This document shows positions 7,774 through 64,000 of a stretch of 64,000 bases of DNA, piece after piece; the stretch's first letter is position 1; each line of letters starts with the position of its first letter. The translations under genes and the position numbers were made by a program. The notes beneath the pieces are model-generated. The model saw only the letters and a program-made list of their open reading frames with translations. It ran no database searches and was not told the DNA's origin. The DNA comes from an uncultured Candidatus Saccharibacteria bacterium (GTDB lineage: Bacteria; Patescibacteriota; Minisyncoccia; UBA6257; 2-01-FULL-56-20), in assembly GCA_964360585.1 (NCBI GenBank), contig CAYHXC010000004.1, forward strand, positions 15,366-79,365. Direction: 5' to 3'.

Positions 7774-8952
7774 TTACTGTCTGATACGGATGTTAATTAG
7801 TTCTTCACTATTCTTTTTTTCTACGGCCACAGTTGTTGTTCCCTTTAAAAGATCGCTGTGTACTTCGACGCCAATCGTTCCGGAAACACTGCCGCCATGC
7901 TCGCTTGAACTTCCAGTCTCCAAGGGGAGGGCTTCGTCGCGATCAGCATCATTTTTCTCGTCAGTTTGCATCTCACTTCTCACATCTACTGCCGTCTTGG
8001 ATTCGTGGGCGATCCGAATAGCATCATTTGCCAGGTTGAATGCTTCGCCGTACAGACCAGCTTCATTTTTTACTTTGGCTTGGATCAAAAGTTCGTCGGA
8101 CAGCGTAAGAAGAGCTTCGATTTCCGAGGCATTCTCGAGACGTAGTTTATTCTCTTTTTTTGCCACGTATTTTTTTGTTTCGAGCAGTATCTTCCCAGCC
8201 GCCTTAATCTTAGCGTTCGCGGCGTGTTCGGTGCTTGAGCTGTTATCGGACTTAATTTTTTTCTCTAGTCGAACCCGGGTTTCGGTGGCGGATGAGAGCG
8301 CCTTACTGATTTTTGTTTCCAGTCGAGAGGGAGGGGGCGCGGCTTCAGGGAGGGCGATTTTTGCGCTCATCATCATTGTTGCTCCGGTGTCGCTTTGTGC
8401 GGTGCGAGCAGCAATTTTCTCATGACCCTGAAGTGTGCCCTCAAATCGCGCCGCTAAACTCGCGGCCTCACGTTCCTTGCCATTTTCCTCAAGTTTTGCC
8501 ATATGCTCCAGTGTTTTTTCCTCATGCGTTTCAAACTCGTCCGAGAGTTCGGTTTCAGTTTTCGCGTCAAGTTTCCCTTGTAGCGCGAGGCGCGATGCTT
8601 CTTCGAGACGACGACTGGCCAGTTCAGCCTCCCAATCGCCTTTAGCCTCTACGCCAAACGAGAGAGCGCCCACGACTGGTTCGTTCACCTGTTTTTTGAC
8701 AATATAGAGCAGATCGCCGGGCAATGTTTTCTCGGCTGCCAGCGAAGTTCCTCCGCCGATCAAAAAGATAATCACAAAAATGATAGCGGGCACTTTGGTA
8801 AGTTGGTACAAGAAATGACGACCGACAGGTTTTTTGATAGCGAGATCAGCCTCAATGAGACGGCTTAAATTGCCGCGAATGATATTTTTGCGTTCAAGGT
8901 CGAGACGGATCTCGTTCCGGGCTTTTTTCAGTTGTTCAAAAAGTGGTTCCAT
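7774..8952 (-). CDS. putative anti-sigma factor (single-pass membrane protein)
   Basis: located immediately downstream of the ECF sigma gene; cytoplasmic N-domain, TM helix VPAIIFVIIFLIGGGTSLAA, extracytoplasmic coiled-coil domain. Confidence 0.5.
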   Translation of the reverse strand: MEPLFEQLKKARNEIRLDLERKNIIRGNLSRLIEADLAIKKPVGRHFLYQLTKVPAIIFVIIFLIGGGTSLAAEKTLPGDLLYIVKKQVNEPVVGALSFGVEAKGDWEAELASRRLEEASRLALQGKLDAKTETELSDEFETHEEKTLEHMAKLEENGKEREAASLAARFEGTLQGHEKIAARTAQSDTGATMMMSAKIALPEAAPPPSRLETKISKALSSATETRVRLEKKIKSDNSSSTEHAANAKIKAAGKILLETKKYVAKKENKLRLENASEIEALLTLSDELLIQAKVKNEAGLYGEAFNLANDAIRIAHESKTAVDVRSEMQTDEKNDADRDEALPLETGSSSEHGGSVSGTIGVEVHSDLLKGTTTVAVEKKNSEELINIRIRQ

Positions 8953-8957
8953 GGATT

Positions 8958-9455
8958 TTAAAGTAACTTCTTTAAGGATTGCATTGCCCGATTGAGTTTT
9001 ACGGAAACGTTATTGGCCGTGATATTCATTATTTCGGCAATTTCCTTAGGGTCAAGGTCGTCAAAATAGCGAAGAGTGAGAAGCGTTCGTTCGTCTTCTT
9101 CGAGATCAGCCATCTGTTCTTTGATGTTTGCAAGAAGGGTGTTCCGTTCGATGTCTTTATGTCCGGCATACGACGGTTCGGCAATCTGATCATTCTCGAG
9201 CATCGCATCAAGTTCCGCCTCTTTTTTCTTTCGCGATTCGTCGATGATCAAGTTTGTGGCAATTTTATAAAGCAGAGCGCGGATGTTTTCTATCTCTTTT
9301 CCGTCGGACATATAAACCCAGAGTTTAGTAAAGGCTTCCTGCATTAGATCCTCGGCGCGAGCCTTGGAGTAGACGCGAAAGTAGCAGTGGCGGTAGATCG
9401 CCTCGGCATGGTCATCATATGCTTGGAGAAAAATATTTTTCGGATTTCTTGCCAT
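8958..9455 (-). CDS. ECF-type RNA polymerase sigma-70 factor
   Basis: region 2 (EDLMQEAFTKLW) and region 4 HTH (EIAEIMNITANNVSVKLNRAMQSL); 165 aa. Confidence 0.8.
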   Translation of the reverse strand: MARNPKNIFLQAYDDHAEAIYRHCYFRVYSKARAEDLMQEAFTKLWVYMSDGKEIENIRALLYKIATNLIIDESRKKKEAELDAMLENDQIAEPSYAGHKDIERNTLLANIKEQMADLEEDERTLLTLRYFDDLDPKEIAEIMNITANNVSVKLNRAMQSLKKLL

Positions 9456-10589: not shown

Positions 10590-10717
10590 AAATTCGAAGT
10601 CCTAAATACGAAACTCGAAACAATAATCAATGCTCAAGTTTTCAAATATTTTTAAACTTTTAGAATTTTCTTTCAAGCGAATTGTTTCGGATTTCGAAAT
10701 TCGATTTTCGTGTTTCA
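10590..10717. repeat. MITE-like TCGAAA-rich element, copy 1
   Basis: inverted ends CGAAACTCGAAACA ... TGTTTCGGATTTCGA; related copies at 39305-39432 and 51202-51247. Confidence 0.55.
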
Positions 10718-10845: not shown

Positions 10846-10985
10846 AAAAGGAATTCCCGCCTCCTTATATGAGGAAGGGGTTAGGGTTTAGGGAATAGGG
10901 GTTAGTAAATGCAAGATTGCATCCACTCTACCCCAAACCCTATCCGCTATACCCTTGTCTCATATAAGGAGGCCACCCCCAGATG
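10846..10985. repeat. long imperfect palindrome with telomere-like G-tracts
   Basis: outer inverted repeat CCTCCTTATATGAG...CTCATATAAGGAGG; core GGGGTTAGGGTTTAGGGAATAGGGG (four G-tracts) and central ATGCAAGATTGCAT palindrome. Confidence 0.55.
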
Positions 10986-11228
10986 AAAAGCTACTATTCA
11001 ATTGATGCCCTATTATATGCGATAAGTCAGCATTTGTCAAGTGCCGGTTCCTCCCCAGTTTTGAGGAGAAACGACCTGTCCCGCCATAGCTTTAGCGGCG
11101 GCGGACAAGAATCAATAATGCCTTAGGTCAAAAAAGGAGTCAAGGCAAGTTCGGGATAACCTCTGTATAGGCAGTGGATAAGGCGTTTTCCGGTTATTTA
11201 TGAAAAGCGCATGTTAGAATGACATACT

Positions 11229-12848: not shown

Positions 12849-13520
12849 TCAAATCTCCACCCAATCTCGGAACTGCCCGATTGTCTTGGCGCCAAGGGTG
12901 TAGTGCCGCACTAGCGGGCAGCGGACCCAGTCGGCTTTTAACGGAAAGCGGGCATGGATATTGTGATAGACCGTCAGTCCGAGTTGGGGAGCGTCACCGT
13001 CCCAGAGGACGCCAATAGCACTAAGAGAGGTATTGGCGCTTGGTGTCACTCTCTTTTTGCCGCGTGGTGCGAAGTCGCGCTCCAGTACCGTTGGCGTCTG
13101 GCAGTTGGTAGCTATCGTAAAGGCCTCAAGACCGTACATAGCCGTCTTGATCGCGTAGGGGTCAGTATGGCGACATGTGAGCTTTGCCACGTTGTTGTAG
13201 AGAACGAGCAGCGTGGGCGATACTCCTTTTGCAAGAGTTCGCAGCTGGCGGGCTCCTTTATCAATTTTCTTTCGAGCGCGGTCGCCGGGTTCACCGCCAA
13301 AGACACCAGTTGACCCTCTTAGCTCCAGTTCCTCAATCAGCCGTTGCTCCTCGACTGTAGGATCGAACTGCTTGACCTCAGCGATCACTCGTTCGCCAGA
13401 CAAAACAAGTTCGTAGTCAGGACGCTCCTCTCCCTCATCTTCCGCGGTCTCAATGCGTCTCCAACGGACGTTGTTGCGGTCACAGAACTCCTCGAAGAGT
13501 TGTTCAGATTTGGTTGGCAT
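12849..13520 (-). CDS. PD-(D/E)xK nuclease-like protein (restriction endonuclease fold)
   Basis: RPDYELVLSGERVIAEVKQFD matches the PD...(E)xK core; last gene of a 3-gene overlapping operon. Confidence 0.4.
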   Translation of the reverse strand: MPTKSEQLFEEFCDRNNVRWRRIETAEDEGEERPDYELVLSGERVIAEVKQFDPTVEEQRLIEELELRGSTGVFGGEPGDRARKKIDKGARQLRTLAKGVSPTLLVLYNNVAKLTCRHTDPYAIKTAMYGLEAFTIATNCQTPTVLERDFAPRGKKRVTPSANTSLSAIGVLWDGDAPQLGLTVYHNIHARFPLKADWVRCPLVRHYTLGAKTIGQFRDWVEI

Positions 13521-14355
13521 GTTGACCGTGTGGCGCGGCGCCCCGCGAGTCTTTCGTGACCGCGAGAAACACTAGGCGTTCGTAGAATGCGAGTACCCAG
13601 GCCATGTGGTGAGGATGAGCTGGGTCAAATGTGTAGAATGCATACAGGAAGGCGGAGTCTCCGATGAAACGAGACTGCCCGTCGTTTAGGACCTGCTGCG
13701 TTATGGCCGCCACGCGATGGACGGTTTCTTCGCTGCGGATCGCTGGCGGATGAAAATGCACGATTTTCACCGAGATATCCTGCGGCAGGATCGTTCGCGT
13801 TTCATGGAAAAACAGCCCTCTGATTATTCTCTCCATAACGCGGTTCACACGCACATAGTCGACCTTATAGCCGACCTCCGTGCCCAGCAGGATGCCCGAG
13901 CGTGTCCATTGATCCACAAAGCGCAGACTCCCACTGAATGCCTTCCTAAAACCTGCCTTCCGCGCGTTACTCAAAGCCGAAAGGACGCTCTCGCGTGCAC
14001 GGAGCGCGACGGGATGTTCCCCCGCTTCTCGACTCAGGGTGAGAATCAGACAGAGGTACTCATCGTCCTTGGACGCGTTGCCATTGCACGTCCGGCACGC
14101 TGGCACACAGACCAAATCTCGTTGTGCGACCTTAGGCAGTGTGCACTGAGGCGGCAGATGATCGGCCGTCAACTGCGTGTTACCACCGCAGTAAACGCAC
14201 TGGTCGCTCAGCCAGCGCCGCCTGTAGTGCCTCCTCTTCCCCACGACCACCTCGTTGGTTAGAGAATACCATCCTCGAGAAGTCCAGCAAAGATCATCGG
14301 CCTTCTGGCGTGAGCGAGACCAGTCAGTCGGCCTTGCCAGACTTTCTGCGGTCAC
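13504..14355 (-). CDS. HNH endonuclease domain protein with extended C-terminal domain
   Basis: CVYCGG...TADHLPP...CRTCNGN (CxxC-DH-CxxCN HNH signature); overlaps neighbours by 17 and 32 nt. Confidence 0.55.
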   Translation of the reverse strand: MTAESLARPTDWSRSRQKADDLCWTSRGWYSLTNEVVVGKRRHYRRRWLSDQCVYCGGNTQLTADHLPPQCTLPKVAQRDLVCVPACRTCNGNASKDDEYLCLILTLSREAGEHPVALRARESVLSALSNARKAGFRKAFSGSLRFVDQWTRSGILLGTEVGYKVDYVRVNRVMERIIRGLFFHETRTILPQDISVKIVHFHPPAIRSEETVHRVAAITQQVLNDGQSRFIGDSAFLYAFYTFDPAHPHHMAWVLAFYERLVFLAVTKDSRGAAPHGQHANQI

Positions 14356-24876: not shown

Positions 24877-25441
24877 AGTTAAGGCAAAAGTTGATAGTTT
24901 CGACGAGATCAAAAAGAAACTCGAAGATATGGGGTGTGTATTTTCTGAACCGCTCGTACAGCACGATATTATCTACGCTGAAGAGGGGAAAGAGTTTTTG
25001 GTGGAGGCAAAAGTTGGACATCGGGTGGTGCGGTTACGGCGGGAAAATGGCCCGCTTCGCCAAGGCGTGAGCGAGGCGAGCCGGGCGATTTTTAATATGA
25101 AGCAGCAGCAGTCAAATGAGCTGGATAGTATCGAAAAGGAAACAGAGGTCGGCGATCTGGATGCGATGCATGCGATTCTTCTGGCCTTGGGATTTCGGCC
25201 GGAAGTGGAGGTGAAGAAGAAGCGTTTGAAGACCCATTATCAAGAGTACGAAATCTGTCTCGACGAAGTTGAAAAGTTAGGAACGTTTATCGAAGTGGAA
25301 AAAATGACCGCTGATGAGATTGATGCCGCCAGTGTGCAGGAAGAATTATTCACGTTTCTAGAATCGTTGGGCGTGAAGCGAGATCAAGAACAGAAACGCG
25401 GATACGACACGCAAATCTATAAATTAGAACATCAAACATGA
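24863..25441 (+). CDS. CYTH-domain protein (class IV adenylyl cyclase / triphosphatase fold)
   Basis: N-terminal EIEVKAKV signature of CYTH; overlaps upstream gene by 14 nt. Confidence 0.55.
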   Translation: MREIEVKAKVDSFDEIKKKLEDMGCVFSEPLVQHDIIYAEEGKEFLVEAKVGHRVVRLRRENGPLRQGVSEASRAIFNMKQQQSNELDSIEKETEVGDLDAMHAILLALGFRPEVEVKKKRLKTHYQEYEICLDEVEKLGTFIEVEKMTADEIDAASVQEELFTFLESLGVKRDQEQKRGYDTQIYKLEHQT

Positions 25442-28647: not shown

Positions 28648-29008
28648 GTTGGGGAGTGGGAAGACTGAACTGACACGCAGTTTGCTTCGCGTTTTGGGCG
28701 TGAAAGGACGGGTGACGAGTCCGACATTTACGCTGATCCGGAAATATAAGTTGTCCGCGCGGACGCCTTTTAAGTTGGCTTTTCATATTGACTGCTATCG
28801 TTTAAAAAAACCGGAAGAACTACTGATGCTGGGTTTTCGCGAGATTATCGAAAATCCCGAGCATCTCGTCATCATCGAGTGGCCCGAGCTGATGAAGAAA
28901 TATATTCCGTCGCGATCAACGGTTAAAATTTCTTTGTCGCACGGCTCGCCTCGCTCACGCTTTGGCGAAGCGGGCAAAAAACAAAACGAGCGGATAATTA
29001 GATTCTAA
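28496..29008 (+). CDS. tsaE: tRNA t6A biosynthesis ATPase TsaE (YjeE)
   Basis: P-loop [18 protein letters not shown] motif; true start may be internal ATG 28619 because of 150-nt overlap with upstream gene. Confidence 0.65.
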
Positions 29009-33346: not shown

Positions 33347-33706
33347 TCAGAGAAGGTCAGAGAGGAGGTCGCGCAACATTTGTTTGTACGCGTATGGTGA
33401 GTGCCTCAACCGTTTATCGGGTTTGTCGACGAAGAGGTCGTTGTTGAGCAGCTTTTCGTGAAGCTCGTTGATGAGGGAGGCAACCTCAGCAACCTCTGGA
33501 CGCTCACGCATGACGTTGCGAGCTTCTCCGGTTACATGGGTTGACTCGGCTTCCTTGCTTTCCCAGCCCTCGACCGGTGGTTTTTCATTCATACCTTCAT
33601 TTTCAGGGCCGGCGGAAAAATTGTCAAATAGAATGAGGGGTCCTATATTGGGGTATACTGTAGAGGGATTTAGGGGTACGGAAGCGGATATACATGAGAT
33701 TGCCAC
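33347..33706 (-). CDS. hypothetical protein
   Basis: 119 aa ORF on minus strand upstream of polA. Confidence 0.3.
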   Translation of the reverse strand: MAISCISASVPLNPSTVYPNIGPLILFDNFSAGPENEGMNEKPPVEGWESKEAESTHVTGEARNVMRERPEVAEVASLINELHEKLLNNDLFVDKPDKRLRHSPYAYKQMLRDLLSDLL

Positions 33707-33759
33707 GCTCCTGCTGGAGCTCGCAATGACATTTCCTATCTACTAATTACTAACGACTC

Positions 33760-37779: not shown

Positions 37780-37900
37780 GTGTCATTGCGCCTGCCCATC
37801 CGTAGCCTTCTTGTCCGTCGAAGCTTTAGCGAAGTCGGAGGCGAAGGAGGGAGGAACGTAGTGACAAAGCTGAGCTTAGCTCTGCGTGGCAATCTTAAGA
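37780..37900. repeat. GTCATTGCG structured repeat family, copy 1 (degenerate)
   Basis: TGTCATTGCGCC ... GCGTGGCAATCTTAAGA; interior matches window end 63941-64000. Confidence 0.5.
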
Positions 37901-39304: not shown

Positions 39305-39432
39305 AAATCCGAAATTCGAATATCGAAACTCGAAACAAACACGGAAATGTTCAAATCCTACAAGTTTAAAATTTTGTGTTTTGGGGCTTCGGTCATTGTT
39401 TCGGATTTCGAGCTTAGGATTTCGTGTTTTAC
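39305..39432. repeat. MITE-like TCGAAA-rich element, copy 2
   Basis: ATCCGAAATTCGAATATCGAAACTCGAAACAA ... TTGTTTCGGATTTCGAGCTTAGGATTTCGTG. Confidence 0.55.
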
Positions 39433-39471
39433 GACCAGTCACTATCCACTAACCCCTAATCACCATTCGCT

Positions 39472-40248
39472 ATGATCCTCTTTCTCAATGGTCCTGATGA
39501 TTATCGTCGCGAAGAGCGCAAGCGATTTTTGATCGACCAGTTTCTTAAAAAATATCCAGGGAGTAGTATCGAGCGATTTTCAGCCGATTCCAAAGAGGGA
39601 AGGGAGAAATTCCATGAGTTTACAATTTCACCTTCGCTTTTTGGAGATAAGCGTTTAGCCTTATTAGATGATCTTTTTGAAACTGATGATGCGGCACTAA
39701 TGAAAGATTTAAAGAACGTTTTAGAGAATCCGCTCATTTGGGTTTTTATTTCGGAACGAGAAAAGATTCCGGCGGCCTATAAATTTCTCCTCAAAAAACC
39801 AGTGACTGCGGAAGAGTATCCGTTTCTTGAAGAGGGGAAGTGGCGTGAGTTTATATCGACGGAATCGAAAAAACGTGGACTTACTCTAAATTCCGAGGCT
39901 ATGAATATTTTCCTTTCCTACTATAAAGATGACACCTGGCGACTCATTACTGAACTGGATCGGTTGTCTTCAAAAAAAGGAGCTATTCAAAAACAGGATG
40001 CTCAGCTGGAGAAGGGAAAAGGTTTCAATCTTTGGGGGATGCTGAATCAATTGAAGGGATCTTCTCGCCCACAGCGTCTGGCGGCTTTGGAAAGGATTCT
40101 CGGGAATGGTGAGCCGGCGGCGAAGATTTTCAATATTCTTGCGACCCAGGCAGGGAGTAGGGTGCAGGAGTTCGCTGATTGGGATGTGCAGATAAAATCG
40201 GGAAAGTTGGAGTACGAAGAAGTATTGTTGGAGTTTGTTTTAAAATAA
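39472..40248 (+). CDS. holA: DNA polymerase III delta subunit-like (HolA)
   Basis: N-terminal LFLNGPDDY, clamp-loader delta architecture, W...L...ELDRL motif. Confidence 0.5.
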   Translation: MILFLNGPDDYRREERKRFLIDQFLKKYPGSSIERFSADSKEGREKFHEFTISPSLFGDKRLALLDDLFETDDAALMKDLKNVLENPLIWVFISEREKIPAAYKFLLKKPVTAEEYPFLEEGKWREFISTESKKRGLTLNSEAMNIFLSYYKDDTWRLITELDRLSSKKGAIQKQDAQLEKGKGFNLWGMLNQLKGSSRPQRLAALERILGNGEPAAKIFNILATQAGSRVQEFADWDVQIKSGKLEYEEVLLEFVLK

Positions 40249-40266
40249 GGATGAGCTATTTGTTTT

Positions 40267-40361
40267 GTCATTGCGAGCGAAGTCGAGTTTAACTCGAAGA
40301 AGCGCGGCAATCTAAGAATATATTCAAGAGATTGCCACGTCACTCCGCTCCTCGCAATGAC
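40267..40361. repeat. GTCATTGCGAG...CTCGCAATGAC structured repeat, copy 2
   Basis: perfect 11-bp terminal inverted repeats; internal hairpins CGAGTTTAACTCGA and GGCAATCT...AGATTGCC. Confidence 0.7.
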
Positions 40362-40422
40362 AATAATACGTAGCGATCAAAAAACGGCCATAGGCCGTTC
40401 TGTGTTTTCTATTCCCTAACCA

Positions 40423-40683
40423 CTAAACCCTAGCCACTGCCCGAGACAGTCTGGATTTCAGGCGACTGGCAGTATTTTTGGTAATCGTATTCCGCTTGGC
40501 GGCTTTGTCGAGAATCTGGAAAACTCCCGGCAGTTTTTCTTTGGCTTTGGTAAAGTCTTTGGCGGTGACGAGCTTACGATATTCCTTAACCGCCTTCTTA
40601 TAGGCTTCTTTGGTTTTAACGTTGCGCGCCTTGTTTGTCTTATTTTGACGGAGGGCTTTTTTAGCCGATGATGTTCTTGGCAT
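40423..40683 (-). CDS. rpsT: 30S ribosomal protein S20
   Basis: 86 aa, SAKKALRQNKTNKARN signature. Confidence 0.85.
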   Translation of the reverse strand: MPRTSSAKKALRQNKTNKARNVKTKEAYKKAVKEYRKLVTAKDFTKAKEKLPGVFQILDKAAKRNTITKNTASRLKSRLSRAVARV

Positions 40684-40838
40684 TGAGGGTAGGGGTTAGT
40701 GATTAGTGGATAGGGTATAGGGAAATGCGATTCCTAATGGGAAATAGTGTATGGGAAATCAAGGAAAGAGTCAATCCTTCGGTGAAGCTCAGGACAGGCT
40801 GGATTATAGAAATAAAAAAGCCACACCGTGAAGTGTGA

Positions 40839-46905: not shown

Positions 46906-47229
46906 TCAGTCGTTGTCGGGCGACCAGGGGATCTCGGATCCGTCCGGTTGGATGAAGATCGTTGTCCCCGGAATGAGCCGGCAGGCTTTCTCGAAATCAA
47001 CGTTGTAACGATGTTTCATCGTACGACGTGTCTCGGGACCACAGCTGCCGTCGGTGTCGATTCCGTTCCTTGCTTGGAGTTGGGACATAGCACCGGCAGT
47101 GACGTCTCCATAGTTGCCGTCGAACACGATGTCCTTTCCGTAGCCTGCTCCGCAGGCTACGAGTTGGGGAATCAGAGTGTGAGGACCTTTCGATCCTTTT
47201 TCCATGAATGGCGGAATCGGTTGCGCCAT
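46906..47229 (-). CDS. peptidoglycan-binding domain (PG_binding_1) protein
   Basis: FDGNYGDVTAGAMSQLQARNGIDTDGSCGPETRRTM; GC-rich; the longer ORF start lies inside repeat 47303-47401, so internal Met chosen. Confidence 0.45.
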   Translation of the reverse strand: MAQPIPPFMEKGSKGPHTLIPQLVACGAGYGKDIVFDGNYGDVTAGAMSQLQARNGIDTDGSCGPETRRTMKHRYNVDFEKACRLIPGTTIFIQPDGSEIPWSPDND

Positions 47230-47302
47230 ACTTTCGAATCCTCCTGGCACGTTTTTAGCATATTCATTATTCCTTTGTCCAGAAAATGAAAAAGCAATGG
47301 AT

Positions 47303-47401
47303 GTCATTGCGAGGAGCTCCGGCAACCGCCGGAGCGACGTGGCAATCTTTTTTAGATCGCCACGCTACGTCGAGTTGAACTCGACTACGCTCGCGATGAC
47401 A
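47303..47401. repeat. GTCATTGCGAG...CTCGCGATGAC structured repeat, copy 3
   Basis: inverted termini plus internal hairpins GTGGCAATCT...AGATCGCCAC and CGAGTTGAACTCGA. Confidence 0.7.
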
Positions 47402-47413
47402 TATGGAAAGTAA

Positions 47414-47449
47414 AGGGGAGAAAAACCGCCACTGGCGGTTTTTCTCCCC
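47414..47449. terminator. strong bidirectional rho-independent terminator after rpsA
   Basis: GGGGAGAAAAACCGCCACTGGCGGTTTTTCTCCCC. Confidence 0.8.
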
Positions 47450-47454
47450 TTTAC

Positions 47455-48576
47455 TTACTTCTTCAATTTCAAAGCAATACGTTTCTCTTCGGGTTTTACT
47501 GAATCAATAACGAAGGAGTGCTTCTCGTCTAAGACCAATTTCTTTTTCATGTCTTCGATACTGCCAAACTCAGAGACGTGGATCATGCCCTGGAGGCCAT
47601 GGTTCAAATTGATGATGGCGCCGAACTGGTTGAACTGATAAACCGAACCGGAAACATCCTCTCCAGCTTTGAACAGCTCACCGGCATTTTTCCACGGATC
47701 ATCCTGCAAGGCTTTCAAGGACAAGAAGAGGCGATCTTCCTTAATATCAATAATTTTTGCTTCGGCCACTTCGCCCACCTGGATAACTTCCTTCGGGTTG
47801 GCGACGATGCGGTAGCTCAACTCTGAGATGTGGATTAAGCCTTCAACTTGTGGATTGTCGACGAAGCGAACAAAGACACCGAAATTGGCGAGGCTCGTCA
47901 CTAACACTTTCACGAGCTGGCCAACGGTGTACTGGGAGACGAGCTCCTTCACGTTCGAAGCTAACGTTTCGCGCTCGGAGATAATCAATTTGTTCAAGCG
48001 GGGATTGATGTCGATGATTTTCACACTCAACTCCTGGCCGATAAATTTCTTCAGCTCCTCTCCAATTTTTTGTTTATCACCATCGTCAACTTTCGGGTAG
48101 TTTTCCTGCGAGAGCTGGGAGACAGGGAGGAAGGCCTTCAGATCGAAGAGGTCGGCGGTCAGTCCTCCAGTATTCGAACCGCTCACTTTTACCTTGAGAA
48201 CCACACCTTCGTCCTGCGCATCCTTCACTTTTTGCCAGAGTTGCTGCTTGCCGGCTTCGGTCAGGGAGATTTCGATATAGCCAGCTTTGTTTTCCAAAGA
48301 GATAATCTTGGCCGGCAGTTTTTCGCCAGGGGCCATTTTCTTCAGAAGCTCGCGGGCGTTGGCCATCTCCACACCGGAGACGATACCGGTACCAAAGCGG
48401 CCAAGGTCAAAAAACACGCCACGGGAGTTCTTACTCATGAGTTCAGCATCAACTACGTCGCCTTCCTTTATATACTTCACCGTCTGGAGCTGATTCTTCA
48501 AAACCTGCGACAGGGTCTGAGGCAGGTTCTTGCTCTCATCGGTCACTTCGTTCGTTTTTATTTCGTCGGTTTTCAT
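47455..48576 (-). CDS. rpsA: 30S ribosomal protein S1 (four S1 domains)
   Basis: repeated S1 OB-fold motifs (GDVVDAELMS..., GQLVKVLV..., GEVAEAKIID...); 373 aa. Confidence 0.75.
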   Translation of the reverse strand: MKTDEIKTNEVTDESKNLPQTLSQVLKNQLQTVKYIKEGDVVDAELMSKNSRGVFFDLGRFGTGIVSGVEMANARELLKKMAPGEKLPAKIISLENKAGYIEISLTEAGKQQLWQKVKDAQDEGVVLKVKVSGSNTGGLTADLFDLKAFLPVSQLSQENYPKVDDGDKQKIGEELKKFIGQELSVKIIDINPRLNKLIISERETLASNVKELVSQYTVGQLVKVLVTSLANFGVFVRFVDNPQVEGLIHISELSYRIVANPKEVIQVGEVAEAKIIDIKEDRLFLSLKALQDDPWKNAGELFKAGEDVSGSVYQFNQFGAIINLNHGLQGMIHVSEFGSIEDMKKKLVLDEKHSFVIDSVKPEEKRIALKLKK

Positions 48577-50896: not shown

Positions 50897-51241
50897 ATGT
50901 CGCCCTTGGGACAATCATTTCTTCATAAGCTCCAGGATTCCGATCACGGTCGCAAGCGGTATATTTTGATTCTGGGGAGTGGATGTACCATGATCGTTAT
51001 TTTGGGAATTTTGTTTTCAACAACATCGCTTTTTCGAGTGGCAGGTGAAAAGCAAACAGCATTAGTTCGTCCGGATTTTTCTCTCTGGAAAAGCATGAAA
51101 GGAGCAAGTATAGTGATAGCCCAATCAGCTGTTGAGCGAGTGAGTTCAGCGGGCAGTGTTTTTAGCCAGAAGAAAAATATTGTTATAAAGCCAACCAATG
51201 AAATCCGAAATTCGAATATCGAAATCCGAAACAATGATTAA
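50897..51241 (+). CDS. hypothetical small membrane protein
   Basis: 114 aa; last 13 codons lie in MITE-like repeat copy 3. Confidence 0.3.
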   Translation: MSPLGQSFLHKLQDSDHGRKRYILILGSGCTMIVILGILFSTTSLFRVAGEKQTALVRPDFSLWKSMKGASIVIAQSAVERVSSAGSVFSQKKNIVIKPTNEIRNSNIEIRNND

Positions 51242-55335: not shown

Positions 55336-55830
55336 ATGGTAAAAAAAATTCTTATCTTTTTTGGTTTACTGCTTCTCGTCGGAGTACCCTCGCTTCTTTT
55401 AGCGCAAAGTTCGGTGCCGACAGTTCAAAATGCCTGTACCGTCGAAACGCCAGGTTTTCCGTACTGGGGAACAGGTCCTTCGCTTCTCCCCTGCGGAACG
55501 AATGGCGTAAACTGTCTCGAGTGCGGTTTGTGCGGCTTGCTGATGTTGGGGCAAAGGATCATCTACCTGATACTTTCCTTCCTGATTTTTATTATTGCGC
55601 CACTTCGGTTTATCTGGGGCGGCTTCCAGATTTTTATTTCCCGCGGCTCGTCAGAGATGGTGTCGCACGGCAAGAAGATAATTTACCAGACAGCGACCGC
55701 GCTCGTGATCGCCCTTCTGGCATTCGTGCTCATCCAGACGTTTTTGTGGCTTTTGGGAGGCGTGAACTTAACACAAGATCAGCGTCTTGGCTGGCCCAAC
55801 ATCAACTGTACGCGTAATCTCCGGCCATGA
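55336..55830 (+). CDS. T4SS-pilin-like (TrbC/VirB2-like) small membrane protein, paralog 1
   Basis: signal peptide, Cys-rich segment, two C-terminal TM helices with conserved A..K...Y motif. Confidence 0.5.
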   Translation: MVKKILIFFGLLLLVGVPSLLLAQSSVPTVQNACTVETPGFPYWGTGPSLLPCGTNGVNCLECGLCGLLMLGQRIIYLILSFLIFIIAPLRFIWGGFQIFISRGSSEMVSHGKKIIYQTATALVIALLAFVLIQTFLWLLGGVNLTQDQRLGWPNINCTRNLRP

Positions 55831-56297
55831 TTTCTTCTCTCATATCAGGTAAAATGAAAAAGATGAAGACAATAGTCGCCATCGCTCTCTTACTGTTATT
55901 CCTCACGCTACCACTTCCTTCTTTTGCTCAAGGAACTCCAAGTCTGGGAACAGGCACTCAAAGTCCTGGGACAGGTACTCAAACCCCCGGTATTCCCACT
56001 CCCAGTCCCGCCTTACCACTTCCCAATCTTCTCAACTGCCCCCCTCCTACCGGCCCAAATACTCCGCCGTGCTTTCTCCAGATTTTCCAGGATGTAATCG
56101 GCCGACTGCTCCTTGTTATCTATCCGCTTCTGGCCGGGATGGTATTCTATGGCGGCATGCAGATGATGTTCGCGCGGGGAAATACGGAAAAGTATAAGGC
56201 TGGTCTCAAAACCATCCAGTATGCGGTCATTGGATTTGTCGTTATAGTGCTCTCTCAAGGGCTTGGCCTTATCATAAAAAGTATCCTTGGTCTCTAG
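55827..56297 (+). CDS. T4SS-pilin-like protein, paralog 2
   Basis: signal peptide, Pro/Thr-rich linker, conserved C-terminal two-helix domain. Confidence 0.55.
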   Translation: MISSLISGKMKKMKTIVAIALLLLFLTLPLPSFAQGTPSLGTGTQSPGTGTQTPGIPTPSPALPLPNLLNCPPPTGPNTPPCFLQIFQDVIGRLLLVIYPLLAGMVFYGGMQMMFARGNTEKYKAGLKTIQYAVIGFVVIVLSQGLGLIIKSILGL

Positions 56298-56377
56298 GTT
56301 GCTATTTTGCCCGTCCCTATGGAGTGTGCTACAATAATCCAACATGGAAAGGTCGGTACATTAGTTACTGTAATGTT

Positions 56378-56761
56378 ATGAAGAATCATAAACTAATTTC
56401 CGGAGCTCTCACGTTAGTTACAGTTCTCGTTTCCCCAATGGCTGCGTTTGCTCTGCCGGAGGTGGAACCCATTGTGACCATCAATCCTGTTCCACCGCCG
56501 GAAAGTGATGCAGGTATCACAGATCTTAACGTTGTTCTCCAACTCCTTGTTAATCTCCTGGGCTATGTTCAGGCTTTGTTCTGGATTGCCGCGGTTTTCT
56601 TTGGTCTCTATGCTGCTTTTCTCTACCTCACCGCTCAAGGCGATGGTGAGAAGGTTTCAAAGGCCAACCATATGCTTATCTATGTTGTTGTGGCGGTAGT
56701 AGTGGCTGTTATTGCCTACTCCATTCCGCAGTTCGTCACTACGACGATCACCCAGCCGTAA
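56378..56761 (+). CDS. T4SS-pilin-like protein, paralog 3
   Basis: LLGYVQALFWIAAVFFGLYAAFLYLTAQGD...AYSIP; start verified at MKNHK. Confidence 0.6.
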   Translation: MKNHKLISGALTLVTVLVSPMAAFALPEVEPIVTINPVPPPESDAGITDLNVVLQLLVNLLGYVQALFWIAAVFFGLYAAFLYLTAQGDGEKVSKANHMLIYVVVAVVVAVIAYSIPQFVTTTITQP

Positions 56762-56782
56762 GTTTTTAGATACGTTCTTAAA

Positions 56783-56808
56783 AAGCCCCTTCGCGGGGCT
56801 TTTTTGGT
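56783..56808 (+). terminator. rho-independent terminator
   Basis: AGCCCCTTCGCGGGGCTTTTTT. Confidence 0.8.
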
Positions 56809-56924
56809 TGAGGCCCCCTCTTAAAAATCCTTTCTTTTTTCACGAAAGAGATTCTTGAGAGAGGTTCTTAAGGGGTGGGGAAAAGTCTTGTTCACGAGAA
56901 AACTTCGCGGTATAATCGCTAGTA

Positions 56925-57302
56925 ATGCAGATGCGCCAATTTCTCCTCGGAAGCCTCTTAATCCTTGCGACTTTGTTTTCTGTCATTCCTGTAGTCTTGG
57001 CCGTGCCCCCTGCCACACCTGGTACTGTTCCACCCTGCGTCGGTTGCCCTTTAACGAACGTGAGTCAGGTTGTGAGTTTGATAACTGGCATCGTAAATCA
57101 GATGCAGATTGTGTTCTGGACGGTGGCGGCTGGCTCGGGACTTTATGCCGCCTTTCTTTTTATTCGCGGCGGCAGTAATACCGAATCCTTGAAGCAGGCC
57201 AAGAATCAGATCCTCTACACCGTGATCGCGGTTATTTTAGGAGTGCTGGCTTATGGTATTCCGGGAATTGTGACTGATTTTCTGAAAAACGTACGCGGAT
57301 GA
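56925..57302 (+). CDS. T4SS-pilin-like protein, paralog 4
   Basis: VNQMQIVFWTVAAGSGLYAAFLFIRGG...AYGIPGIV. Confidence 0.6.
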   Translation: MQMRQFLLGSLLILATLFSVIPVVLAVPPATPGTVPPCVGCPLTNVSQVVSLITGIVNQMQIVFWTVAAGSGLYAAFLFIRGGSNTESLKQAKNQILYTVIAVILGVLAYGIPGIVTDFLKNVRG

Positions 57303-57652
57303 TTATACATTTCTTGAGTTCCATCGTAAGTAGGTTAACCGAGAAGGCTTATGCGTATCCGCGCTTCACCGGTCCGCCGGCAGATGCCGGAGGGGCGCCC
57401 ATCAAAACCGTAAACGAGGCTCTCGGCATCATTGTCGCGGTGATTGACTTGGCGCAAGTGGTGTTCTGGATTTTGGCCGCCGGTTTTGGTCTTTATGCCG
57501 CCTATCTCTATCTTTTCGCGCGGGGGGATAAAGAGTCAGTCACCACTGCTCGGCGGATGTTGGTGTATACCGCCGTCTCAATCTTAGTTGCCTTGATCGC
57601 CTACGGTATACCGTCAATTATCGTAAATTTCGTAAATCTTGGAACACCATGA
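57299..57652 (+). CDS. T4SS-pilin-like protein, paralog 5
   Basis: VIDLAQVVFWILAAGFGLYAAYLYLFARGD...AYGIPSII. Confidence 0.6.
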   Translation: MIIHFLSSIVSRLTEKAYAYPRFTGPPADAGGAPIKTVNEALGIIVAVIDLAQVVFWILAAGFGLYAAYLYLFARGDKESVTTARRMLVYTAVSILVALIAYGIPSIIVNFVNLGTP

Positions 57653-58161
57653 TCAAGGGCTACCAGTTTCGCGTGATTTTTTTCCTCGCCACTCTTCTCG
57701 GTGTGTTGCTCATTTTCTCGCCAGCGTTTGCGGCACAGTGGGAATGTCGGTCAACCGGTCTTTCATTCTCAGACGCGGGTTTCTGTCGCTCGCAGTGCGG
57801 CGGCGTGAGCTGTGTTTGTTCCGGGTCGGCTTCGGAGTGCGGTGGCGGTAATAATCCTTTTGCGACGGATCAAACACCGTATCCCCACACCGTTGTTCCG
57901 CCGAATCCCGGTCCGGTGAATGATGTTTTCACGATGCTTGGTGTTTTAACTTCAGTGATCGAGTTGGCCCAAATTATATTTTGGATTCTGACTGTTGGCT
58001 TCGGTCTCTATGGTTCCTATCTCTATCTTTTCGCGGCGGGCAATGCGGAGAAGGCAATACAAGCGAGAAAGGTATTTCTCTACGCCGTAATTGCTGGCGT
58101 GCTGGCTATACTTTCCTACAGTATTCCGGGAATCGTCGAAAGTTTTGTTTTAGGATACTAA
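57649..58161 (+). CDS. T4SS-pilin-like protein, paralog 6 (with Cys-rich N-domain)
   Basis: signal peptide, CRSTG...CGGVSCVCSG Cys-rich, then VIELAQIIFWILTVGFGLYGSYLYLFAAGN. Confidence 0.6.
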   Translation: MIKGYQFRVIFFLATLLGVLLIFSPAFAAQWECRSTGLSFSDAGFCRSQCGGVSCVCSGSASECGGGNNPFATDQTPYPHTVVPPNPGPVNDVFTMLGVLTSVIELAQIIFWILTVGFGLYGSYLYLFAAGNAEKAIQARKVFLYAVIAGVLAILSYSIPGIVESFVLGY

Positions 58162-58166
58162 ATCAT

Positions 58167-58676
58167 ATGAAAACATTTAAAAAAATTAGCCTCGTCGCAT
58201 TTTTGCTCGTTGTGGTGGTTTTCGGATTTTTCCCGCATTTTGCCGATGCCCGTCGAGATGAGAGTAACATTTGTTTTGGAGTCGGGGATGTTGTTATCGA
58301 CCTAAATCTCCCTTGTCTTTTTGGTGGTAAGGTATGCCTCGATGCGGATCTCGCAAACGAATGTCAGCGCCTTGGTGGACGGTGGAGCGCGGTCATGCCC
58401 CAGTATATTGGTCCCGGCGATACGAATGGGCCAGTTGAGGATGTTGAAACTTTCTTAGATCTTCTGGTGTGGTTTATTAAATTCTTCCAGATTGTCTTCT
58501 GGGTTTTGACCGTTGGCTTTGGCCTCTACGCCGCCTATCTCTATCTTTTTGCGGCGGGGAGTTCGGAAAAAGCGGCCCAGGCGCGTCGGGTTTTAGGATA
58601 CACGGTTATCGCGGCGGTCGTCTCGGTTATCGCTTACTCTATTCCGAGCGTCATTGATAGTTTCTTAGCCGGGTAG
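58167..58676 (+). CDS. T4SS-pilin-like protein, paralog 7
   Basis: signal peptide, Cys-containing domain, IKFFQIVFWVLTVGFGLYAAYLYLFAAGS...AYSIP. Confidence 0.6.
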   Translation: MKTFKKISLVAFLLVVVVFGFFPHFADARRDESNICFGVGDVVIDLNLPCLFGGKVCLDADLANECQRLGGRWSAVMPQYIGPGDTNGPVEDVETFLDLLVWFIKFFQIVFWVLTVGFGLYAAYLYLFAAGSSEKAAQARRVLGYTVIAAVVSVIAYSIPSVIDSFLAG

Positions 58677-58682
58677 ATTGTT

Positions 58683-58740
58683 GTCATTGCGATCCGCCAT
58701 CCGCCAACTGGCTGGAGGCGGAGAAGCAATCTTAAATTGT
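58683..58740. repeat. GTCATTGCGA structured repeat, partial copy 4
   Basis: TGTCATTGCGATCC...GAAGCAATCTTAAATTG. Confidence 0.5.
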
Positions 58741-58870
58741 ATTAAGCAGGTTCATTTTCCCAAAAGAAAAAGGCCCTTGAGATGTCTCGCGGGCCTTTTG
58801 GATTTTCGCCTTGCAAATTCTTCAGCGAAACGGTCGGCGTAGTTACCGTTCCACTTATTCACTCACCCGC

Positions 58871-60678: not shown

Positions 60679-60770
60679 TGTCATTGCGAATCGAGTGTAA
60701 CTCGATGCGGCAATCTTTTGGAATTACATGAGATTGCTTCGCCCCGGTCATAGTCGAGGCTCGCAATGAC
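60679..60770. repeat. GTCATTGCGA...CTCGCAATGAC structured repeat, copy 5
   Basis: same architecture as 40267-40361 (CGAGTGTAACTCGA hairpin, GGCAATCT...AGATTGC hairpin). Confidence 0.7.
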
Positions 60771-60847
60771 GAAATTTAATTTCCCAACTATTATTCAGGA
60801 GTTGAGGAATATCTCGAACGAAAGTATGCTTTAGCCAAGCCTTATCT

Positions 60848-62465: not shown

Positions 62466-62500
62466 ATTTCTACTTGGCTTTTTTATTTGTGTCCCCATTA

Positions 62501-62668
62501 GGAAGGCTCAGCATTCCTAGCTCGACCCCTAAAAAGTAAAACCGAACATGGATGCTCGGTTTTGTTCTCTCGGCATTCCCACCAGGAAGGCTGCGCATTC
62601 CTGGCCCAACTCCTCAAAAACAAAACCGAACATACATGCTCGGTTTTGCTCTCTCGGCGTTCCCACCA
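62501..62668. repeat. two tandem ~84-bp units each ending in a tRNA 3'-end-like segment (TTCCCACCAGG)
   Basis: units 62501-62584 and 62585-62668 ~85% identical; each contains hairpin AAAACCGAACAT..ATGCTCGGTTTT and CCAGGAAGGCT..GCATTCCTGG; third unit continues into a truncated tRNA 3' half (T arm CCAGGTTCGATTCCTGG on minus strand). Confidence 0.6.
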
Positions 62669-62795
62669 GGAATCGAACCTGGGTCTACTCCTTACCTGCC
62701 CGCCATTGCCTGCGCCCTCGGTAGGAAGGACAATCATTCCTACCTTGCCATCTCAAAAGAAAAACGAAGCGTGCCGCTTGATTTCTCTCTCTCGG

Positions 62796-62867
62796 TGCCC
62801 TCGGTAGGAATCGAACCTACGTCTAGAGCTTAGAAGGCTCCTATTCTTTCCACTGAACTACGAGGGC
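62796..62867 (-). tRNA. tRNA-Arg (anticodon UCU)
   Basis: acceptor GCCCTCG/CGAGGGC, anticodon stem GGAGC/GCTCT loop CUUCUAA, T arm GTAGG-TTCGATT-CCTAC. Confidence 0.8.
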
Positions 62868-63940: not shown

Positions 63941-64000
63941 GAAACTTTACTTGTCCGGCGAAGCTTTAGCGAAGTTGGAGTGAAGGCGGGGATCCCTCGA
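63941..64000. repeat. partial copy of the 37820-37870 repeat segment (truncated by window end)
   Basis: CTTGTCCGGCGAAGCTTTAGCGAAGTTGGAG matches CTTGTCCGTCGAAGCTTTAGCGAAGTCGGAG. Confidence 0.45.

Follow-up and report, generated by a model that had tools for sequence, protein, structure and literature searches.

The ~95-bp element that recurs in the window, the 64-kb stretch of a Patescibacteria chromosome analysed here (Hainich groundwater, well H51, 0.1-µm fraction), consists of two independent palindromic units of 35–50 nt placed face to face. The elements are likely to be CGTC-tagged REPs, mostly present as head-to-head, REPIN-like dimers, that are non-autonomous and copied in trans. Their anatomy fits the CGTC-tagged REP superfamily and its head-to-head dimers, so that the "REP-type" label of the original prediction is borne out, whereas its statement that there was no precedent is wrong, since CGTC-tagged REPs were described in 2013 (PMC3733652). 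The kind was therefore already known, and what is new is the placing of a type with an ATTGC stem (the ATTGC type) in Patescibacteria and in phage DNA.

The repeat family itself is real, as had been proposed. The terminus GTCATTGCGAG is matched eight times in the window at one mismatch or fewer as compared with 1.2 matches expected, and none of 100 shuffled sequences reached eight. An nhmmer profile built solely from the copies of other organisms and then run on the window recovered its sites with E values from 6.5e-8 to 0.24 (Table 1); the diverged right unit of the 47.3-kb dimer was not found by this profile. The inventory of the window comprises three head-to-head dimers, three single units and no tail-to-tail dimer, and every unit carries the tag TGTC. 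The three full copies, the half copy at 58.7 kb and the degenerate copy at 37.8 kb had been listed correctly, but the unit at 33696–33731 had been missed, and the "related fragment" at 63941–64000 has neither tag nor inner box and matches only a second small repeat, CTTGTCCGNCGAAGCTTTAGCGAAGTNGGAG. The first base of the element is one position before the start that had been drawn, and this position (−1) is C or T in 92–95% of copies. Perfect 11-mers, said to bound all full copies, are present at both ends of the 40266–40362 dimer only; the dimer at 47302–47401 has the right terminus CTCGCGATGAC, and that at 60679–60771 has the left terminus GTCATTGCGAA. The reported difference in hairpin order also disappears on alignment: the 47.3-kb copy is merely inverted, and its reverse complement aligns module by module with the 40.3-kb copy.

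Table 1. REP units of the window with their sequence features and the E value of the profile built from other organisms
Element	Unit	Position (strand)	Features	nhmmer E
Dimer A	Left	40266–40314 (+)	TGTC; ATTGC...GCAAT; nested hairpin TCGAGTTTAACTCGA; tail CTA	1e-4
Dimer A	Right	40328–40362 (−)	Canonical 12-nt module GAGCGGAGTGAC; inner box GTGGCAATCT	6.5e-8
Dimer B	Left	47302–47349 (+)	Nested hairpin GCTCCGGCAACCGCCGGAGC	3e-6
Dimer B	Right	47355–47401 (−)	Nested hairpin TCGAGTTCAACTCGA; stem ATCGC/GCGAT	From sequence
Dimer C	Left	60679–60717 (+)	Nested hairpin TCGAGTGTAACTCGA	0.013
Dimer C	Right	60730–60771 (−)	Inner box CGAAGCAATCT	3e-6
Single		58682–58733 (+)	Inner box AGCAATCT	0.24
Single		33696–33731 (−)	29 nt upstream of polA start codon (33760)	8.6e-6
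Single, disrupted		37781–37896 (+)	Tag and 5' stem 37781–37792; inner box and tail 37884–37896	

The genes of the window include polA, a histidine kinase gene, fpg, holA, rpsT, ruvA, rpsA, and gyrA. Dimer A begins 18 nt past the stop codon of holA (39472–40248) and lies ahead of a terminator hairpin (40375–40399) shared with rpsT. Dimer B is located between the 24-bp terminator hairpin that follows rpsA (47408–47456) and a PG-binding gene, and dimer C between the start of an SPFH gene (60505, minus strand) and tRNA-Leu (60848, plus strand). The single unit 58682–58733 begins 7 nt past the stop of ORF 57981–58676, and a terminator hairpin (~58771–58800) is found downstream. At three of the six window sites (after holA, after ORF 57981–58676 and beside the rpsA terminator), the copy is placed between a stop codon and a terminator. 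For the PG_binding_1 gene (46906–47307, minus strand; Pfam E = 2.9e-7), the ATG that is called as start coincides with the CAT in GTCAT (47303–47307), a REP terminus; either the start codon is supplied by the REP or the true start is farther downstream. Repeats of this type are a hazard to annotation because they yield spurious ORFs and peptides (VIASEAKQS, HCERSEAIQ, LLRFARNDG, DCFASLAMT) and misplaced start codons.

The two halves of the disrupted unit, the ends of which are detected separately by nhmmer, are parted by ~90 nt that hold a copy (37810–37840) of the second, unrelated small repeat CTTGTCCGNCGAAGCTTTAGCGAAGTNGGAG, nested inside the REP; this repeat recurs at 63950–63980 and, inverted and diverged, at 11076–11106. 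Several other repeats are present in the window. Intergenic repeats of the AAATCCGAAATTCGAATATCGAAACTCGAAACAA type are found at 10590–10623, 39305–39338, and 51201–51234 and in inverted orientation at 10681–10717 and 39393–39429, and runs of TTAGGG/TTAGTG-like heptamers occur on both sides of rpsT and elsewhere (10873–10909, 39442–39474, 40405–40441, and 40681–40732). A 39-nt inverted repeat (25050–25088 and 28937–28975; 95% complementary) spans 3.8 kb and could mark an invertible or mobile segment. In a cluster of five tRNA genes, beside tRNA-Arg(tct), direct repeats at 62494–62832 resemble the 3' halves of tRNAs (GGAATCGAACC...) and may be integration scars.

The anatomy of the unit was drawn from 427–606 distinct units of other organisms. 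It comprises, in order, the tag (C/T)GTC, ATTGC, GAG, a variable module, G(AA/TG/CG), GCAAT, and the tail C(C/T)N, and can be summarised as CGTCATTGCGAG...GCAATC. Among 427 distinct units, the tag is CGTC in 51% and TGTC in 41%, and the tail, which is unpaired in the folds, is CTC in 34%, CCA in 29% and CCC in 11%; the inner box G(AA/TG/CG)GCAATC is present in 560 of 606 units. When a unit stands alone, its fold shows the stem and the hairpin, with the tag and the tail both unpaired. Stem columns 5–9 pair with columns 28–32 in 98% of cells, and the stem consists of five Watson-Crick pairs; a GAG/GNN internal loop comes next, and then a nested module that measures from 4 to more than 40 nt. The same arrangement is seen in the window: in the DNA fold of unit 40266–40314, the tag is free and the ATTGC/GCAAT stem encloses the nested hairpin, and unit 58682–58733 has exactly the tag-stem-hairpin-tail scheme (z = −3.4).

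The two stems of the unit differ in how freely they vary, and both contain compensatory changes, so that the covariation put forward in the original prediction as a check on the hairpins was found. The nested hairpin is free in sequence and length and often has a GNA triloop or tandem G.A pairs. In a sample of 47 units with a 12-nt module, two-sided changes occur at all five pairs, and the covariation is 0.179 as compared with 0.058 after shuffling (a value reached in 0 of 500 shuffles) and with 0.095 or less in slid controls. Nested modules beat all 20 of their shuffles in folding in 72 of 226 cases, where ~11 were expected. Most common is the module G-GA-GC-GAA-GC-GA-C, in which a GNA triloop is combined with tandem G.A pairs; the latter are swapped for G-C and C-G pairs in other copies. 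This module contains GCGAAGC, a very stable DNA mini-hairpin. The outer stem is near-invariant, and when both sides have changed, the change is compensatory in five of six cases (ATCGC/GCGAT, GTTGC/GCAAC, and ACTGC/GCAGT). The first of these variants is that of the right unit of dimer B, where T-A is replaced by C-G inside the unit's own stem; it arose in unrelated loci and is also carried by two metagenome copies.

The window dimers also fold strongly as wholes (z = −6.2 for dimer A, −8.0 for dimer B, and −5.0 for dimer C). A long hairpin between the two halves was rejected as the selected structure, because left and right units are statistically independent in their AA/TG/CG variants (observed numbers close to expected) and compensatory changes stay within a half. 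The two units have identical modules in only 16 of 213 dimers. The independence of left and right variants, together with compensation inside each half, argues that selection acts on each unit's own hairpin. The inverted repeats that bound the element in the original prediction are the heads of these two independently varying units.

These features bear on the suggestion that the element is a classical MITE, derived by deletion from a DDE-transposase IS, with 11-bp terminal inverted repeats, that moves by cut-and-paste or copy-and-paste and leaves a target-site duplication. We consider this extremely unlikely. The elements are indeed small, dispersed, intergenic and present or absent between relatives, and their termini form a superficial 11-bp inverted repeat, but the halves of a dimer vary independently, compensation maintains the stem within a half rather than the pairing between termini, and single half units are common and fold by themselves. 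The target-site duplication that had been proposed as a check is not seen across 258 distinct dimers at any offset (0–3) or length (2–8), observed counts being close to shuffled ones. Neither a parent IS nor a longer, cargo-bearing autonomous version was found; inverted termini 250–3500 bp apart were seen in four cases, which share no cargo.

Tags on the outside are the dominant arrangement: of 317 plus-minus neighbours, 306 are within 130 nt of each other, in loci that had been chosen by a tags-outside pattern; because of this choice, only the dimer count of the window is unbiased. Spacers are mostly 22–34 nt and contain 2–4 further complementary pairs. The window dimers share one module (TCGAGTNNAACTCGA) and otherwise differ, and this module is not private to the window genome because it is present in three unrelated metagenome contigs. 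Sub-types are also common to unrelated genomes. Traces of recent transposition were not seen, the closest pairs of filled and empty sites being only 57–85% identical; one pair (L049 and L038) is consistent with the insertion of exactly TGTC...GACA with no duplication. Clustering of the genes around 111 viral and 120 genome loci gave no recurrent neighbour, only housekeeping or phage structural genes being found around the copies, and genes for GIY-YIG or 23S-IVS proteins, considered as partners, were rejected since they did not recur in this clustering. Searches with tblastn using 10 RAYT and TIRYT sequences gave no match in the window or in ~2 Mb of loci, and no RAYT was found in the plasmid records that carry the element.

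Comparison with related genomes indicates how the copies came to their places. In syntenic relatives (holA 57% identical), the spacers at these positions are 2–33 nt long, and there is no copy in ~20 kb; the orthologous spacer between the histidine kinase gene and fpg is 4–26 nt in the relatives, as compared with the disrupted 37.8-kb REP in the window. Because these relatives are without any copy, the copies were most likely gained in the lineage of the window. The original prediction had pointed to two copies that flank a GC-rich SPFH cassette. Mobilisation of such a cassette by the flanking copies was rejected because distant relatives keep the same gene order without the repeat; in one of them the order gyrA, SBP, pilin-like genes, partner gene, SPFH, tRNA is retained. 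The SPFH genes are ancestral and are not a cassette brought by the repeats. At 55336–58676 the window has six paralogous small ORFs with a weak T4SS_pilin match and an 86-nt conserved stretch in common, and the same array is also located beside the SPFH genes in a distant relative (L243).

The position of the copies raises the alternative that the element is primarily a cis-acting RNA (a 3'-UTR stabiliser, an RNase III site or a terminator helper) that is selected on the transcript and whose mobility is incidental. In addition to the three window copies between stop codon and intrinsic terminator, 82 of 88 classifiable dimers (93%) in loci at ≤55% G+C, as judged from crude ORF maps, are between tandem or convergent ORFs and downstream of a coding region. 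The hairpins covary, the folds are strong (z = −5 to −8), and the 2013 survey argues that many REPs are transcribed (PMC3733652). However, syntenic relatives manage without copies, some copies are upstream of genes (33.7 and 60.7 kb), in-frame within ORFs or in terminus-only tandem arrays, and a generic hairpin function leaves the identical boxes across phyla unexplained. The mismatches of the outer stem are divided about equally between G.T (13) and A.C (15) and therefore give no signature of a transcribed strand. The Rfam search that had been suggested put no family on the elements, even with the E value relaxed to 5, and only tRNAs reached gathering score. The "small structured RNA" of the original prediction gains no support from the Rfam and mismatch results, but the copies are located in likely 3' UTRs; a primary RNA function is in our judgement improbable.

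The distribution of the element was examined with the pattern GTCATTGCGAG-N60-90-CTCGCAATGAC, which matches 111 stretches in viral contigs and at least 120 stretches in species-representative genomes from more than 10 phyla. Among the matches listed, the genomes belong to Alphaproteobacteria, Gammaproteobacteria, Bacteroidota, Patescibacteria, Chloroflexota, Planctomycetota, Desulfobacterota, Ignavibacteriota, Zixibacteria, Margulisbacteria, and Clostridia. Across these more than 10 phyla, ~20 identical bases are kept by the ATTGC type. Plasmid matches were found in Novosphingobium, Methylosinus, Methylocystis, and Methylobacterium. The neighbours in viral contigs are genes for portal, major head, head-tail adaptor, and major tail proteins; a part of the contigs may represent prophages or GTA-like regions, and cultured phage records gave no match to the pattern. 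In one viral contig (L097, 1146–1220), a REP dimer is located inside the portal gene and is read through in-frame (…LYSGVIASEAKQSQGIATSPRFIGAPRNDRKGAARNN…), and this insert is missing at the same position in ten related contigs. A second viral contig of 13.7 kb (L111) contains 27 termini in a very dense arrangement (e.g. 13217–13531 and 8576–9313), including tandem terminus-only units with a ~24-nt period (CGCAATGAC plus a 13-nt spacer); a tandem array of this type is absent from the description of CGTC REPs.

Arrays with such a period would suit a DNA site for a host or phage protein, either a recombination or integration target or a binding site of the nucleoid, gyrase or IHF type. The 11-mer and 9-mer boxes are conserved beyond the needs of pairing, and there are analogues in Neisseria dRS3, used by filamentous prophages, and in the REPs used by IS110-family elements; CGTC-1 corresponds to dRS3 in the family descriptions of the survey (PMC3733652). 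This explanation is nevertheless very improbable: no integrase or IS recurs beside the copies, those in the window are not at the borders of prophages or islands (the flanking SPFH genes being ancestral), and a binding role leaves the multiplication of copies unexplained.

We therefore return to the reading of the elements as CGTC-tagged REPs. They would be non-autonomous selfish DNA that is copied in trans through hairpins of single-stranded DNA. The copying enzyme would recognise the tag together with the hairpin in single-stranded form, in the way in which RAYT acts on GTAG REPs; the likeliest candidate is a RAYT-like Y1 HUH nuclease, the gene for which may be at another place in the genome or come from another element. 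Because of its purine-rich loops and G.A pairs, the tag strand folds better, which fits the recognition of one strand. After insertion between a stop codon and a terminator, a copy would be transcribed and might take on a secondary role as a 3'-UTR hairpin, and effects on mRNA 3' ends are plausible. A broader proposal, possible but doubtful, is that the ATTGC-type CGTC REP is one family that spreads horizontally over most bacterial phyla, including ~1-Mb Patescibacteria and phage genomes, without a RAYT of its own, and that it is copied by a nuclease, possibly phage-borne, that has been widely transferred or by a host enzyme of near-universal occurrence that acts on single-stranded DNA hairpins stabilised by G.A pairs and GNA loops. 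If this is true, the small gene sets of Patescibacteria would allow presence/absence profiling to reveal the enzyme. No mobilising enzyme has been known for the CGTC branch from its definition in 2013 onwards, and REPs as a whole rank with the longest-standing puzzles of bacterial genomes. The conservation of ~20 bases over more than 10 phyla, the colonisation of a minimal Patescibacteria genome, the syntenic relatives of which are without copies, and the presence among phage structural genes, with in-frame reading through a portal gene, together sharpen the question of the copying enzyme and offer small genomes for an analysis of co-occurrence.

The division of REPs into GTAG- and CGTC-tagged superfamilies was made by Di Nocera, De Gregorio & Rocco (2013, BMC Genomics 14:522, PMC3733652). 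In that survey, CGTC REPs have an unpaired CGTC tag (TGTC and CCTC being allowed), a stem that begins with AT and a CCA-like tail. They occur mostly as head-to-head dimers, frequently heterodimers, with spacers of 20–100 bp and often complementary ends, and are located near the 3' ends of ORFs, with some intragenic copies and no linked transposase. The hosts named are Proteobacteria, Chlorobi, Bacteroidetes, Spirochaetes, and Thermotogae; Neisseria dRS3 and Rickettsia RPE-6 are included in CGTC-1 and RPE-4 in CGTC-4. All of these listed features are found in the window type, the exception being stem and loop size. The four CGTC families are given a stem of 8–9 bp and a loop of 4–5 nt, with "loops of different length" in Bradyrhizobium CGTC-1, whereas in the ATTGC type a stem of 5 bp is followed by a purine-rich internal loop, which is conserved, and by a nested hairpin. 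ATTGC-type units with a 4-nt module have the 8+4+8 layout of CGTC-1, but three of the eight "stem" positions are non-complementary. Occasional in-frame intragenic copies and a position downstream of ORFs are common to CGTC-1 to CGTC-4 and the ATTGC type, as are hosts among Alphaproteobacteria, Bacteroidota, Rickettsiales, Coxiellaceae, and Micavibrio. Relative to the hosts of CGTC-1 to CGTC-4, the range of the ATTGC type is wider and takes in Patescibacteria, Chloroflexota, Planctomycetota, Desulfobacterota, Ignavibacteriota, Zixibacteria, Margulisbacteria, Clostridia, and viral contigs.

Among the peptides encoded by the CGTC families are VIPAKAGI, RHSELVSGS, VIAGLDPAI, and VIPWLDHGI (PMC3733652, Additional file 3), which differ from VIASEAKQS and LLRFARNDG of the ATTGC type. 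The stems that they imply are ATTCCCGC for CGTC-1, ATTCTGAAC for CGTC-2, ATGGCCGGG for CGTC-3, and ATTCCGTGG for CGTC-4, and none of these four is identical to ATTGCGAG. We place the ATTGC type in the CGTC-tagged superfamily, where it is probably a further family or an unlisted variant. A literal search of the literature for the element sequence and its peptides gave only unrelated primer matches.

The dimers of the window resemble the REPINs of Pseudomonas and Neisseria (Bertels & Rainey 2011; bioRxiv 10.1101/2021.07.10.451892) in that inverted REPs are less than 130 bp apart and can form one long hairpin, and also in being non-autonomous, in the lack of target-site duplications and in the presence of single-unit remnants. 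The master sequence of the Neisseria REPINs is itself a REP of CGTC-1 type. REPINs, however, have a cognate RAYT in the genome, usually with their REPs at its flanks, whereas none was found within the 64-kb window, and they form a near-identical cloud around a master sequence, whereas the window copies are diverged heterodimers. REPIN-RAYT pairs are described as lineage-specific, vertically inherited and absent from mobile vectors (bioRxiv 10.1101/2021.07.10.451892); the spread of the ATTGC type over more than 10 phyla and in phage DNA is unlike this and leaves room for another enzyme. Support for a RAYT comes from Neisseria, in which REPINs of CGTC-1 type (ATTCCCGCGCAGGCGGGAATC) decay where the Group 2 RAYT is frameshifted (bioRxiv 10.1101/2021.07.10.451892). 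In N. gonorrhoeae NZ_CP119142.1 (L245; 927–1100 and 1690–1720), however, GTAG-type REPs (GTAGGTCGGAT...ATCCGAC) stand directly on both sides of the frameshifted Group 2 RAYT, and a CGTC-1 head-to-head dimer is located ~140 nt upstream, an arrangement of relevance to the question of which type of REP this RAYT serves. The link between RAYT and CGTC REPs is thus one of correlation, because the flanking REPs are of the GTAG type. The REP/BIME elements of Escherichia coli (GTAG-3 family) are similar to the window type in being imperfect palindromes in 3' UTRs with alternating orientation, and secondary effects of theirs, on the stability of mRNA and on the binding of proteins, are known. They differ in their GTAG tag, in the absence of sequence similarity, in having a known RAYT (rayT/yafM) and in being confined to enterobacteria.
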